A DNA stretch of 64,000 nucleotides from an uncultured Candidatus Saccharibacteria bacterium (GCA_964607415.1 CAZSKK010000002.1:9991-73990); one strand, 5' to 3'; positions 28,017 through 62,335 are shown, counted from the stretch's first letter. The notes: a model not told the origin generated them from the letters alone. A program made the numbers and translations.

Positions 28017-29246
28017 TTATTGAATCTTTCCCAGTATTGAATAAATTGGCAAATAAACTGCAATAGCAAGAAATCCAACCATTAACCCAGCTATAACTAG
28101 AATAAAAGGTTCCAAAAGCTTTGTCAAGTTATTAGTCATCTGTTCAACTTCATTATCGTAAAACACGCTCATATCTTCCAAGACTTTATCCAACTTTCCT
28201 GCTTCTTCTCCTGTTGCTATTATTTTAAGAAGAACCACTGGAATTGCTCCGTAAGTGTTATTTTTAGCCAAAGAAATAGATAAGCTTTCTCCTTTTTTTA
28301 TACCTTCAACTGAATTTGCAACAGCCTCTACGAATATCTTATTTCCTAAAGCTCTTGAAACTATATTTATTGCATCCAGAATAGGAATACCACTTTTTAG
28401 AAGCATAGATAAAATTCGGCAAAATTCAGCAAGCTCAATTTTTGTTGTAAGTTTGCCAAATACAGGAATTTTCAGTTTAAAACGATCTACCAGAATTTTG
28501 CCTTGCTTAGTTGAATTTATGTACTTATAGACAACAAATAACATAGCAAAGAAAAGAAGAGTCAAAAATAAGCTTACAGGTTTACCAAGTATTTCACCAA
28601 TAACAACAAGAATTTGGGTGACCAAAGGTAGTTCATCCTGACCCAGACTGGTATACAATTCTTTAATTTGAGGAACCATAAAAGTTATCATTATCGCAAG
28701 AACTATGAACATTATTATGAAAATTATTATTGGATAAATCATTGCACCCACAATCTTACCTCGTAGATTCTTACTTTTTTCCAAATCTTCAGAAACCTTC
28801 TGAAGCATTTCACTTAAATTACCACTTTTTTCTCCAGCTGCAATTAAATTTAGTTGCACCTCTGTAAAAATACCTTCTTCTCGTCTAAATGCTTCAGACA
28901 GAGTTATACCTGATTCAATCATTTTATAAACATTTTCCAACTTTACTTTTATAGAATCTTTTTCGGCCTGCTGACCTAAAATATCTATACACTGAATTAA
29001 AGGAATGCCTGCTGCAATCATTGTAGCTAGTTGTTTTACAAGAACAACCTTTTCAGAAAGTGGATAGCCACCAATTTCAATATTAATTATCTTATTCAAG
29101 TTAACCCCGACTTTTTCATCAACAGAAATAACAGTCAAATTGTTGGCAGTCAAATAGCTAACAACGTCATCCTTGGATTCGGATTCTCGCATCCCTTTTA
29201 TTCTTTTTCCTTCTGCAGTAATCGCAGTATAATTAAATTCGGCCAT
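28017..29246 (-). CDS. pilC: type IV pilus platform protein PilC (GspF family)
   Basis: 409 aa, duplicated GspF domains, 3 TM segments. Confidence 0.85.
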   Translation of the reverse strand: MAEFNYTAITAEGKRIKGMRESESKDDVVSYLTANNLTVISVDEKVGVNLNKIINIEIGGYPLSEKVVLVKQLATMIAAGIPLIQCIDILGQQAEKDSIKVKLENVYKMIESGITLSEAFRREEGIFTEVQLNLIAAGEKSGNLSEMLQKVSEDLEKSKNLRGKIVGAMIYPIIIFIIMFIVLAIMITFMVPQIKELYTSLGQDELPLVTQILVVIGEILGKPVSLFLTLLFFAMLFVVYKYINSTKQGKILVDRFKLKIPVFGKLTTKIELAEFCRILSMLLKSGIPILDAINIVSRALGNKIFVEAVANSVEGIKKGESLSISLAKNNTYGAIPVVLLKIIATGEEAGKLDKVLEDMSVFYDNEVEQMTNNLTKLLEPFILVIAGLMVGFLAIAVYLPIYSILGKIQ

Positions 29247-29274
29247 ATATAAAAAATGCTTTTACATCTTACTT

Positions 29275-29355
29275 CTCCTGAAAATGCACATTATGCATTC
29301 AAATGCAGTTAATTTAGTTACACTCAACAGCACAACATGCTGTCTCAGGATGAGG
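29275..29355. repeat. copy A of an ~80-nt structured intergenic repeat (two covarying hairpins), between pilT and pilC
   Basis: CTCCTGAAAATGCACATTATGCATT...ACAGCACAACATGCTGTCTCAGGATGAGG; matches 53074-53152 and 62235-62335. Confidence 0.75.
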
Positions 29356-29382
29356 TTTTAAGTTAAATTCTTTTTTTATGTT

Positions 29383-29456
29383 CTCGACAACAGCATAATA
29401 TGCTTTTTCGAGTTGATCCTGAACTTGCTTGCCAGCCTATGCTATGGTTTCAGGAT
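29383..29456. repeat. degenerate relic of the repeat family (second-hairpin copy + ATCCTGAA...TTCAGGAT inverted repeat)
   Basis: CTCGACAACAGCATAATATGCTTT resembles hairpin 2 of copy C; GATCCTGAACTTG shared with 61010-61023. Confidence 0.5.
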
Positions 29457-29497
29457 TGAGATACTCTTGATTCTTAATTTCCCTTGAATCATTCTGT

Positions 29498-49524: not shown

Positions 49525-49705
49525 AAAAGTTAGTTAAAGGTTAAATGTTAATAGTTAATGGTTGAATGTTAAAGCTGTTTGAACTGCCTTGTATAAAAAT
49601 TAATTAACACTTCACTATCTAAAGGATTTACAAAAAGAGATCAGATGTTAGTGACTATTAGCCTATGATTGAGCTTTGTGTGAAATTCGTAAATGCGTCA
49701 CTTAT

Positions 49706-49777
49706 GTCATCCTGAGCTTATCGAATCTATACCTCAGCCAAGTATTTTTGTCTACCCTTCGACAAGCTCAGGATGAC
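49706..49777. mobile_element. MITE-like miniature element: 20-bp terminal inverted repeats GTCATCCTGAGCTTATCGAA / TTCGACAAGCTCAGGATGAC around a 32-bp core
   Basis: 19/20 matching inverted termini seen directly; ends share the CATCCTGAG/CTCAGGATG motif with the structured repeat family. Confidence 0.55.
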
Positions 49778-49990
49778 ATAATTACAATGTTAAATAAAGT
49801 TCATTATACTTATCTGGCTTAAAGTCTCTGGCTTTTACTCACGAATCTTAATCAGAAATCTGAACTCTATCATCTGTTCTCTGACTTCTAATCTTCCCAG
49901 TAATTATAATATCTTTTGAAAATTTAACAAATGTTTTTTAACATAATCTGATACCTCTAGCTAGAACTTTTGTTCAGACTTGATTTTTAA

Positions 49991-50005: not shown

Positions 50006-50026
50006 TTTATATTCAGAGAATTGTTC

Positions 50027-50055
50027 TTTACATATGTTAATTTTATCGATATAAT
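50027..50055 (+). promoter_or_regulatory. putative promoter TTTACA-N17-TATAAT for rpmE
   Basis: Consensus -10 and near-consensus -35 about 30 nt upstream of the rpmE start. Confidence 0.5.
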
Positions 50056-50085
50056 TCTAATGCTTTAAAAGTAATACACAGTCTT

Positions 50086-52800: not shown

Positions 52801-53049
52801 TTACACGTATTGAGTGTATGGAAGCAAAGCTACCTGCCTTGCTCTCTTAATTGAAAGTGCAAGTTTTCTTTGGCATTTTGCAGATACCCCAGTTTTAGTT
52901 ACTGGTCTTATTCTACCCCTTGTTGTAATGTACTTTTTTAATGTTTGCACATCTTTGTAGTCGATTCTTGAAGAATCTCCATCAAAAGGACATTTTATGC
53001 CTAATTGCTTTGCAGTTTTTTCTTTTACTTTCTTTTTTGCAACTGCCAT
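52801..53049 (-). CDS. rpsR: 30S ribosomal protein S18
   Basis: [11 protein letters not shown]...[40 protein letters not shown]; the ORF-track N-terminal extension (to 53100) would overlap the repeat copy B and is rejected. Confidence 0.85.
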
Positions 53050-53073
53050 ATATAAAAAGTTATTCCACATGCC

Positions 53074-53152
53074 TCTCCTAAGAATGCATAATGCATTCAA
53101 ATGCAGTTAATTAGCTACACTCAACAGCACAATGTGCTGTTTCGAGGTGTGG
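53074..53152. repeat. copy B of the structured intergenic repeat, between ssb and rpsR
   Basis: CTCCTAAGAATGCATAATGCATT...ACAGCACAATGTGCTGTTTCGAGGTGTGG. Confidence 0.75.
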
Positions 53153-53168
53153 TTTATAAAATAATTAA

Positions 53169-59053: not shown

Positions 59054-59160
59054 ATTTGAAAAAAGTTAAAAGTTAAATGTAGAAAGTAAAAAGTTCGTTA
59101 TGAGTTATGGGTTTTGAGTTATGAGTTTGTGTTAACTCATAACCCATTACCCAATACTGA

Positions 59161-59766
59161 TTACTGTTTTGCCATTACTGTCTCTTTCGCAACTTCAAAT
59201 CTTGCAAATTGAACAATTTCAATCTTCTCGCCTATTTTTGCAACCATTTCATCAAGGTAATCTTTTACAGTTTTTGAGTCGTCAACAAAAAGATCCTGTT
59301 TTAATAATACTATCTCTTTATAGAATTTCTCAAGTTTTCCTGAAAGAATTGTTTCTTGAATATTTTCTGGTTTGCCTTCAAGCTCTTTCATGTAAACTTC
59401 TTTTTCTGCATCAATAATTTGGCTATCAATATCCTCTACTTTTATGTATTTAGGGCTCATTGCAGCAACTTGAACTGCCATATCACTTGCAAATTTTTTC
59501 ATGTCATCGCTATTTGCAGCAAAGTCAGTTTCGCAGTCTACTTCAACAACAATCACTACTCTATTTGTTGGGTGAATGTATGTTCCAATAATACCATTAG
59601 ATGCTACTCTTTCTTTCCTTTTATCTGCTTTAGCAACACCTTTTTGTCTTAAAATTTTGATTGCTTCTTCCTGATTTCCATTTGCTTGCTCTAATGCTTC
59701 TCTTACAGCATTAAGTCCTGCGCCTGTCATCTCTCTTAATTGTTTTACTTGGTCTAGTGTTATCAT
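59161..59766 (-). CDS. tsf: elongation factor Ts
   Basis: MITLDQVKQLREMTGAGLNAVREALEQANGNQEEAIKILRQKG. Confidence 0.9.
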   Translation of the reverse strand: MITLDQVKQLREMTGAGLNAVREALEQANGNQEEAIKILRQKGVAKADKRKERVASNGIIGTYIHPTNRVVIVVEVDCETDFAANSDDMKKFASDMAVQVAAMSPKYIKVEDIDSQIIDAEKEVYMKELEGKPENIQETILSGKLEKFYKEIVLLKQDLFVDDSKTVKDYLDEMVAKIGEKIEIVQFARFEVAKETVMAKQ

Positions 59767-60942: not shown

Positions 60943-61009
60943 GAACAGGTCAAGAAGTTAAAGAGTTGACGCGTTTACGGGTTAATCAGTTTGTCAATTC
61001 TATCAGGAC

Positions 61010-61033
61010 GTCATCCTGAACTTGTTTCAGGAT
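61010..61033. repeat. short relic of the inverted-repeat family (GTCATCCTGAACTTGTTTCAGGAT)
   Basis: Left arm matches the 49706 element's terminus; 8-bp hairpin ATCCTGAA/TTCAGGAT. Confidence 0.45.
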
Positions 61034-61123
61034 CTAACTAAATTTTATTTACAAAATACAATTTACTATTTACTGACTACTCTTCTCTGCTATAATTCCG
61101 GAAATTAATTTTTCAAAAACAAT

Positions 61124-61859: not shown

Positions 61860-62213
61860 TTAAAGCTCTTCTGCAATCCTATTCAGTACTTTATCAATAT
61901 CCAAGAAAACCTCTTCATTTGTAAATCTGATTATTTTTATATAGAAACTTTCAATATGTACAGTTCTTACTCTGTCGTAATCTGATATTTCAGGTAATAA
62001 ATGGTGTGAACCGTCAATTTCAATACCTAGTCTGCTACCAGGGCAATAAAAATCCAAAATATATTTGCCAATGGAATACTGCCTTAGAAATCTTACGCCA
62101 TACAGCCTACGCTTTCTAAGATTTTTCCACATCAAAGCCTCGTAGTCTGTAGGCGACTTTCTTAGTTCTCTTCTGTAGTATTTTAAATTTTCAGTGTTGT
62201 ATAACTTAGTCAT
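61860..62213 (-). CDS. DUF559 (Vsr-like endonuclease fold) protein
   Basis: MTKLYNTENLKYYRRELRKSPTDYEALMWKNLR...YILDFYCP...IEIDG; start trimmed because the upstream in-frame codons lie across repeat copy C. Confidence 0.6.
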   Translation of the reverse strand: MTKLYNTENLKYYRRELRKSPTDYEALMWKNLRKRRLYGVRFLRQYSIGKYILDFYCPGSRLGIEIDGSHHLLPEISDYDRVRTVHIESFYIKIIRFTNEEVFLDIDKVLNRIAEEL

Positions 62214-62234
62214 AATTGGAATAACCCCACCGGC

Positions 62235-62335
62235 TCTCCGAGCCACCCGAAAATGCACATTGTGCATTTGAGTGCAGCTTACTAGAGGGCCTCATTAGCT
62301 CCACTCGACAGCATAATATGCTGTCTCAGGGGAGG
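62235..62335. repeat. copy C of the structured intergenic repeat (with ~20-nt internal insertion), in the DUF559 upstream region
   Basis: CTCTCCGAGCCACCCGAAAATGCACATTGTGCATT...ACAGCATAATATGCTGTCTCAGGGGAGG. Confidence 0.75.

Follow-up and report, generated by a model that had tools for sequence, protein, structure and literature searches.

A probable tail-to-tail doublet of NTS/SRM-like hairpin units in an intergenic spacer of a Candidatus Saccharibacteria bacterium

The closest described counterparts of the repeat analysed here are the hairpin repeats associated with Ssn nucleases. In Neisseria, the NTS repeat (CGTCATTCCCGCGMAVGCGGGAATCYRG) flanks ssnA in the order NTS-ssnA-NTS; ssnA encodes a 94-aa single-domain GIY-YIG protein of the CDD family cd10448, and "Ssn-related motifs" (SRM) occur in diverse bacteria (Chenal et al., Nat Commun 2025, PMC11893778). 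SsnA binds the hairpin solely as ssDNA and in one orientation only, and cuts "a few nucleotides upstream" of it; the GTC (3 nt before the palindrome) serves cleavage, the C right after the palindrome serves binding, and cleavage extends to split hairpins assembled from two oligonucleotides (PMC11893778). Recognition of ssDNA hairpins was shown for Neisseria, Wolbachia and related homologues, and in N. meningitidis the system restricts transforming DNA that bears NTS (PMC11893778). The authors likened NTS-ssnA-NTS to IS elements and to REP/RAYT/BIME, and left open the role of the system in other bacteria and the multiplication of the repeats (PMC11893778). The dRS3 repeats of Neisseria (ATTCCC-N8-GGGAAT) form the palindromic core of NTS, the prototype of the family. 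REP, REPIN and BIME elements with RAYT transposases are said to have been described by Nunvar in 2010, Bertels and Rainey in 2011, and Ton-Hoang in 2012.

In this study, we analysed a 64,000-nt stretch of DNA (the window, from whose first letter all positions are counted) of an uncultured Candidatus Saccharibacteria bacterium (GCA_964607415.1, CAZSKK010000002.1:9991-73990). The palindrome at 49702-49781 is probably a tail-to-tail doublet of NTS/SRM-like hairpin units, a variant of the SRMs that flank, and are cut by, Ssn GIY-YIG nucleases.

Anatomy of the doublet and its hairpin unit

A repeat search found an inverted repeat at 49702-49725 and 49758-49781, whose 24-nt arms (TTATGTCATCCTGAGCTTATCGAA and TTCGACAAGCTCAGGATGACATAA) are 23/24 (96%) complementary, with A49720 against C49763 as the sole mismatch. 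There are 32 nt between the arms, and the whole palindrome measures 80 bp. The first-pass annotation had placed inverted termini around a 32-bp core at 49706-49777; these are present and longer than it stated, its 20-nt arms being the inner portion of the 24-nt repeat. At up to three mismatches, the 20-mer matched the two arms only in 64 kb, with 0 expected from 100 shuffles. As ssDNA, the 92-nt region folds at -20.2 kcal/mol on the plus strand and -22.8 kcal/mol on the minus strand (z = -7.7 and -8.1) into a 24-bp hairpin, and none of 200 shuffles folded equally well. The spacer, given earlier as about 560 bp and gene-free, spans 561 bp between a 175-aa ORF (hyp175, start 49524, minus strand) and rpmE (start 50086, plus strand); the two genes are divergent, the doublet lies between their starts, and the sole ORF in the spacer is a 48-aa frame (49676-49822) that crosses the palindrome. 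A gathering-threshold Rfam search of the whole window returned three tRNAs only and no family for the doublet. Permissive Rfam matches in the spacer were rejected as sub-threshold hits to long-hairpin families (AaHKsRNA41, 28 bits against a gathering threshold of 97; mir-1677), and literature searches with nucleotide strings gave unrelated primer matches only, or nothing.

Each arm is one copy of a unit of about 28 nt with the consensus (T/C)GTCAYNCT-GAGCTTGTCGA-AGNRT. Unit A, the left arm (49702-49732, plus strand), reads TTAT-GTC-ATCCT-GAGCTTATCGA-ATCTATAC. Its head and loop are intact and its own 3' half-stem is degenerate (ATCTAT, not AGGAT), so that it pairs mainly with the other arm; this 3' half resembles ATCCATAC in the unit of a relative. 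A linker (49733-49749, CTCAGCCAAGTATTTTT) separates it from unit B, the complete right arm (49750-49781, minus strand), which reads TTAT-GTC-ATCCT-GAGCTTGTCGA-AGGGT-AGAC, is an exact match to GTCAYNCTGAGCTTGTCGAAGNRT and has a 5-bp stem including one G.T pair. The 32-nt core (49726-49757) is thus the linker plus the 3' halves of both units. The GTC heads of the doublet are T-GTCAT at 49705-49710 (plus strand) and T-GTCAT at 49778-49773 (minus strand), and the base 3' of the stem is G after the long stem and A or T after the short stems. Against R1, a covariance model built from 91 GAGC-loop units, unit A scored 15.6 bits (E about 0.08) and unit B 44 bits (E 3e-9), unit B itself being among the 91 model-building sequences. 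An SRM-head-like hexamer, CGTCAC, is present at 49691-49696, 9 nt upstream of the GTC of the doublet, and also at the matching place in the spacer of a doublet-less relative (L189); it could be chance (a probability of roughly 0.1) or a hint of target preference.

The unit is widely distributed. The 20-mer GTCATCCTGAGCTTRTCGAA was found in 14 unrelated IMG/VR contigs whose G+C content varies widely, nearly always as a single copy continuing ...GGATC or ...GGATG. A GTDB scan with GTCAYNCTGAGCTTGTCGAAGNRT, using one genome per species, gave at least 120 loci, and the matches listed came from Bacteroidota, Nitrospirota, Zixibacteria, Verrucomicrobiota, Patescibacteria, Chloroflexota, Calditrichota, Eremiobacterota, Spirochaetota, Ignavibacteria, Clostridia, Elusimicrobiota, Nitrospinota and others. 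The unit spans more than 15 phyla and is also present in phage contigs. The 163 GAGC-loop instances among the matches listed show no conservation outside about -1 and about +25 to +28, indicating a stand-alone unit of about 28 nt rather than the end of a larger element; at position -1 they carry T (103/163) or C (40/163), that is, T or C in 143/163. A sister variant with a GAAC loop (GTCAYNCTGAACTTGTTTCAGNRT) accounted for 115 units in 93 IMG/VR loci, with T or C at -1 in 108. The C 3' of the palindrome is present in all 115 of these, and in 71 of the 163 GAGC-loop units among the matches listed.

The stem of the unit is constrained in structure. Pairing in the 5-bp inner helix reaches 98.9% across 91 distinct units, and the two free positions of the pattern covary almost perfectly with their partners (the free pair 10-26 is CG in 37, AU in 22, GC in 19 and UA in 6). 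None of 500 shuffles reached the observed covariation score, and slid controls were 37-52% paired. The stem of the GAAC-loop variant covaries likewise (paired in 111/115). The isolated hairpin, with 5 bp and an 11-nt loop, folds at only -1.6 kcal/mol, no better than shuffles, which makes recognition by a factor a likelier source of the constraint on the stem than thermodynamic stability. Translations of the units yield recurrent pseudo-peptides, such as VILSLSKD, and pseudo-peptides of this kind probably seed spurious hypothetical proteins in databases.

The likeness of this unit to NTS and the SRMs extends to several features. It is an oriented unit of about 28 nt with a non-palindromic (C/T)GTCAT head directly before the hairpin and ATCY as its 3' tail; the GAAC-loop variant, including a solo unit near 61010 of the window, has a C following the palindrome; the units are multi-copy, intergenic, clustered and spread over many phyla; and in other genomes some of them lie beside single-domain GIY-YIG genes of about 94 aa, in four loci on both sides. 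Both heads of the doublet and that of the 61010 unit conform to HGTCWY directly 5' of a palindrome, and covariation of the family stems indicates a hairpin palindrome kept by selection, as in SRMs. Within the window, the stem has 5 bp in unit B and 8 bp in the 61010 unit, and unit A pairs with unit B only. Unlike NTS and the SRMs, the units have AT-richer stems and long conserved loops (GAGCTTGTCGA or GAAC-TTG-GTTC), the arms of the doublet lack the 3' C, and no ssn gene was seen in the window. A dispersed doublet with a conserved core is likewise a departure from the SRMs as described by Chenal et al. (PMC11893778). The unit differs from dRS3 in the sequence of its palindrome and in its oriented GTC head, which dRS3 as defined lacks. 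The published SRM expression, HGTCWYN(0-2)YYVSBRHN(0-5)WNVSBRGN(0-2)RNCYNB, does match the NTS consensus; it matched none of the 163 GAGC-loop units, none of the 115 GAAC-loop units (0/278) and nothing in the window. SRMs of the published type co-occur with the units in two loci (L020 and L039).

The R1 model matched three sites only in the window: unit A, unit B and 61006-61039 (plus strand; 20.1 bits, E 0.005). The last of these, C-GTC-ATCCTGAA-CTTGT-TTCAGGAT-C-TAAC, is a solo copy belonging to the sister variant, whose loop is GAAC..GTTC; it has a C-GTCAT head at 61009-61014, a perfect 8-bp stem and a C (61034) directly after the palindrome; its DNA fold has -6.1 kcal/mol (z -3.3). A generic scan for GTCAY followed by any 5-bp stem gave 8 matches against 11 expected in shuffles and is thus useless as a criterion, so that only the three strong units stand. 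The first-pass annotation had grouped the doublet with three further sites as one family in several states of decay. The motif it placed at 61010-61033 is the intact solo unit above, and the relic at 29415-29456 is indeed a decayed copy with a long loop (29413-29457, plus strand; GTTG-ATCCTGAACTTG-(20 nt)-TTTCAGGAT-T). It shares ATCCTGAACTTG and TTTCAGGAT with the 61010 unit, 12 + 9 nt being identical (29416-29456) around a 20-nt loop insert, and differs in its head (GTTG, not GTC) and in the T rather than C after the stem; its fold has z -2.7, and the R1 scan of the window did not detect it. The grouping fails for the site at 29345-29355. Its 9-mer (29344-29352) is present, but belongs to an unrelated repeat of about 100 nt with three hairpins, as the 5' strand of the closing stem, and was rejected as a relic; it is not conserved in the other two copies of that repeat. 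Short motif counts in the window were 3 against 0.34 expected for CATCCTGAG and 6 against 0.45 for TCATCCTGA; the TCATCCTGA matches at 28633 and 30765 were rejected, being inside genes and missed by the covariance model.

Insertions into loops or arms also occur elsewhere. A 30-nt GC-rich hairpin is placed inside GAGC...TGTCGA in L084 (1365-1420), another insertion lies upstream of 1816 in L096, and the right arm of a relative's doublet carries an 18-nt insert (L195, 2560-2580). The 20-nt insert at 29429-29448 of the window is a change of this type too. The second repeat family, of about 100 nt, is present at 29242-29358, 53045-53155 and 62246-62330; its minus strand folds so that a closing stem (CCTGA/TCAGG) encloses three hairpins. 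An AGGAG-like site comes right after the end of the repeat and is followed by a gene start at two of the three copies (T2SSF, 28017-29246; a DUF559 ORF, 61860-62267). It has no Rfam match, and its three copies show no compensatory changes; its role may be that of a cis-regulatory leader, or it may be one more mobile repeat. Assemblies of the window strain break at about 62250. The segment 60958-62401 (1444 nt) holds the solo unit at 61010, ORFs of 107 and 75 aa, and a 135-aa DUF559 gene with a Vsr-like endonuclease fold (E 6e-29). In a relative with about 90% identity its place is taken by an unrelated 150 nt (L195, 482-631), and a direct repeat, AAGAGTTGACGCGTTTACGGGTTA (60960) and AAGAGTTAACGTGTTTTCGGGTTA (61812), brackets the solo unit and the two small ORFs. 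This segment looks like a small variable islet.

Arrangement and dispersal of the units

With a loose head pattern (GTCAYNNYGARC), 348 units in 120 loci were collected among the matches listed, and the counts of arrangement that follow hold for these. Solo units, with no neighbour within 150 nt, numbered 117 of the 348, roughly one in three, and a similar share of the units belongs to tail-to-tail doublets. Neighbouring units were paired tail-to-tail in 61 cases, head-to-head in 31 and directly, including tandem arrays, in 59. The tail-to-tail order, with the heads outward, is the arrangement of the window doublet. The outer length of tail-to-tail pairs has its mode at 70-79 nt and that of the window doublet is 72 nt, so that the window element is an ordinary doublet of the family. 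Tandem arrays were seen at several sites. In a Limnocylindria MAG, a 30-nt unit is repeated about 12 times (L073, 3270-3625); in a Flavobacteriales MAG, two-unit repeats of about 100 nt adjoin a GIY-YIG gene (L079, 280-640); in a Clostridia MAG, a GIY-YIG gene is surrounded by complex arrays in which many GTCAC heads are truncated (L084, 1050-2330); and a further site is in L047 (1960-2700).

The mirror symmetry of tail-to-tail doublets extends beyond the conserved unit. In 58 of them (L020-L139), it runs about 5 nt past GTC into the variable flank. Mirrored identity at positions -1 to -5 was 0.78, 0.52, 0.43, 0.47 and 0.43, against 0.42, 0.29, 0.26, 0.26 and 0.28 at the same positions in random unit pairs, a control that is uncorrected for flank preferences within a genome; background was reached at -6. 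The mirrored flank of the window doublet measures 4 nt (TTAT/ATAA) and lengthens the arms from 20 to 24 nt. The extent of the mirrored flanks, about 5 nt beyond GTC in the family and 4 nt in the window, coincides with the reported cut position of SsnA.

Comparison with relatives showed that close relatives differ in the loci at which the doublet, core included, is found. The window organism (G+C 32-33%) is represented by Logan assemblies and one 445-kb NCBI contig, and four contigs of the same strain have an identical 561-bp spacer with the doublet in all. In a related organism, whose DnaB falls in the same 90% cluster and whose genes are 80-90% identical in nucleotide sequence, the orthologous spacer has 212 bp, against 561 bp in the window, and lacks the doublet. 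As the best anchor, AAACTAGTCAATACGTCACGCAATTTATG/ATGTT in the relative corresponds to AAATTCGTAAATGCGTCAC-TTATG/TCATCC...GACATAATTACA/ATGTT in the window; spacers among the relatives are too diverged to place insertion boundaries to the nucleotide. Metagenome relatives reached through prfA (about 60% identical) have spacers of 80-180 bp without units and are too distant for boundaries.

Contigs from the samples of this relative have a doublet between tsf and frr, a spacer that is free of doublets in the window; they were taken as the same organism as the relative, with an rpsB region 90% identical to the window. That doublet reads GTCATGGTGAGCTTGTCGAATCCATAC-ATCTGGAATGTATTTTGAA-CATGCTTCGACAGGCT(18-nt insert)CAGGATGAC, and its arms and core align with those of the window doublet, the core at 20/32 positions, a score equalled in 5 of 5000 shuffles. 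Because arms and core are homologous at another locus, it appears that the whole doublet was copied, and not the unit alone. On the evidence of these sequences, the doublet behaves as a REPIN-like dispersed unit.

Intergenic regions turn over fast between these relatives, and genes stay 80-90% identical. In the tsf-frr spacer of the window, an imperfect palindrome of GTTATGAGTT-like repeats (59097-59164) is found where the relative carries the SRM doublet instead. The rpmE promoter region (50024-50085; TTTACA-17-TATAAT plus leader) is kept in L140, L141, L142 and L189, even where prfA is only about 60% identical, and the rest of the spacer is not conserved.

Small GIY-YIG genes and alternative readings

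We searched for a partner gene by an all-against-all comparison of the ORFs within 1.2 kb of the units. The sole recurrent neighbours of a nuclease or mobile type were small GIY-YIG proteins of 75-106 aa, in which the Pfam GIY-YIG domain is the only domain (6/6); the other recurrent clusters were housekeeping families (SDR, aldehyde dehydrogenase, ABC transporters). A profile search located the GIY-YIG genes in L035, L079, L084, L091, L096 and L289. Units in these genomes lie directly beside the small GIY-YIG genes: in L035, L084, L091 and L096, GTCAT...ATGAC units of several variants occupy both sides of the gene within tens of nucleotides. In L079 the end of the locus cuts the gene region and upstream units only were seen, and in L289 the unit cluster is downstream only. 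The GAAC-loop variant flanks the genes in L035 and L289. NCBIfam has no specific family for these proteins, and their nearest PDB match, an UPF0213 protein (E 0.005), is not close. GIY-YIG genes were present in 6 of about 213 motif-selected loci, compared with 0 of 65 controls; by counts this difference is not significant, and the argument from these genes rests on immediate adjacency and the published association. No GIY-YIG ORF was found in the 64-kb window plus about 8 kb of extra flank, and the flank beyond the window (about 1 kb on the left, to the contig end, and about 7 kb on the right) contained no further unit.

The architecture of the doublet is shared with REP, REPIN and BIME elements, in which 5'-headed hairpin units form inverted doublets as the replicating unit and the enzyme gene is flanked by repeats. 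An inverted, long-hairpin doublet as the dispersed unit, the mark of a REPIN, is evident here from the fold, the doublet statistics and the homologous doublet in the relative. A REP/REPIN element mobilised by a RAYT, an IS200/IS605-like Y1 HUH transposase, and not by a GIY-YIG nuclease, would account for an inverted doublet of short palindromic units that yields a long hairpin, like REPINs and BIMEs, and for a conserved non-palindromic head 5' of the hairpin, comparable to GTAG in REPs. However, the head is GTCA rather than GTAG, and no Y1-transposase family was among the recurrent neighbours, whereas GIY-YIG, a hydrolytic enzyme and not a Y1 HUH one, emerged. The unit is also nearly identical across phyla, whereas REPs are lineage-specific. 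We regard mobilisation by a RAYT as unlikely.

The first-pass annotation had read the element as MITE-like. A classical MITE would be a deletion derivative of an IS, with terminal inverted repeats of 20-24 bp bound by a DDE transposase, for instance of an IS630/Tc1-like element duplicating TA. The inverted ends of 24 nt (23/24), the short non-coding core, the total of 80 bp, the intergenic position and the variable presence between relatives agree with this, as they do with bacterial MITEs such as the Correia elements of Neisseria and IS630-derived ones, and read as TA-TGTCAT...ATGACA-TA the element has TA on both flanks. But the arms are self-contained hairpin units that also occur solo, head-to-head and in tandem across phyla, and their internal stem covaries, which is unexpected for transposase-binding ends. 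No direct target-site duplication was found; the flanks, ...CACTTAT/ATAATTACA..., are inverted and share the palindromic TA alone, and T at -1 is family-wide (103/163 among the matches listed). The annotation saw no transposase in the window, and none was found; beside the units, no recurrent IS or transposase appeared in about 213 loci, so that neither a parent IS nor an IS partner emerged. What survives of the MITE label is a small, non-coding and non-autonomous palindromic repeat that is dispersed and has relatives in decay, and its transposase-type ends, target-site duplication and IS partner do not; we consider descent from an IS to be quite improbable.

The palindrome could also be a functional local hairpin, serving as a terminator, an mRNA stabiliser or an operator of the divergent hyp175/rpmE promoters, with its resemblance to repeats secondary. 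It is very stable and lies between divergent genes, and the co-option of REP-like elements as 3'-UTR regulators is known. However, no T-run follows it (0 terminator-like sites), both promoters lie downstream of it (that of rpmE, which is conserved and the best promoter match, at 50027-50055), it matches no Rfam family, and the orthologous spacer lacks the element in a close relative and in three distant ones. A purely local role is very unlikely. A chance palindrome in an AT-rich spacer has in its favour only the frequency of short palindromes in the window (38 pairs) and is refuted, with a negligible probability, by the shuffles (0/100 and 0/200 reach the doublet) and by exact matches to the motif in hundreds of unrelated contigs.

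A possible mechanism and its meaning

We propose a scheme for the preferred reading, a tail-to-tail doublet of NTS/SRM-like units. The unit itself, (T/C)GTC followed by a 5-8 bp stem, the conserved loop GAGCTTGTCGA and the returning stem, is constrained in structure and found across phyla. When single-stranded during replication, uptake or transfer, either strand of the doublet would form a GTC-headed hairpin, presented as the stem of the unit itself or as the 24-bp stem between the arms. By analogy with SsnA, a cognate Ssn-type nuclease could bind and nick this hairpin. The tail-to-tail order puts a GTC-headed hairpin on each strand, so that either strand would be cuttable when single-stranded. 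The doublet may have been propagated as a REPIN-like non-autonomous unit via repair or copying initiated by the nuclease. GIY-YIG enzymes are hydrolytic, and peel-and-paste of the IS200/IS605 type would therefore need host ligation or repair.

A bolder idea, which we advance tentatively and hold to be doubtful, is that SRM doublets move as REPIN-like units, with Ssn cleavage defining their ends, and that the loop-variant units are a cross-phylum, horizontally spreading selfish class. If so, the process would be a single-strand hairpin copy-out/copy-in, or homing, driven by a GIY-YIG nuclease, and the units with GAGCTTGTCGA and GAAC..GTTC loops would be a horizontally spreading class of selfish repeats missed by the published SRM definition. 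We know of no element for which GIY-YIG-driven copying or homing of a single-strand hairpin has been demonstrated.

The class that suits the element best is that of a REPIN-like doublet built from an SRM/NTS-type repeat, a loop variant outside the published definition. This replaces the generic MITE label with a specific, testable one, the DNA partner of Ssn-type ssDNA nucleases. In annotation, the units give rise to spurious small ORFs (49676-49822 in the window), and assemblies probably break at them. Two abundant cross-phylum classes of units, with GAGCTTGTCGA and GAAC..GTTC loops, escape the published SRM expression; censuses of Ssn and SRM thus probably undercount, especially in Bacteroidota, Chloroflexota, candidate phyla and phages. 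The architecture of the doublet, its core, its presence or absence between relatives and its mirrored flanks provide material on how the repeats multiply, a question left by the 2025 paper.
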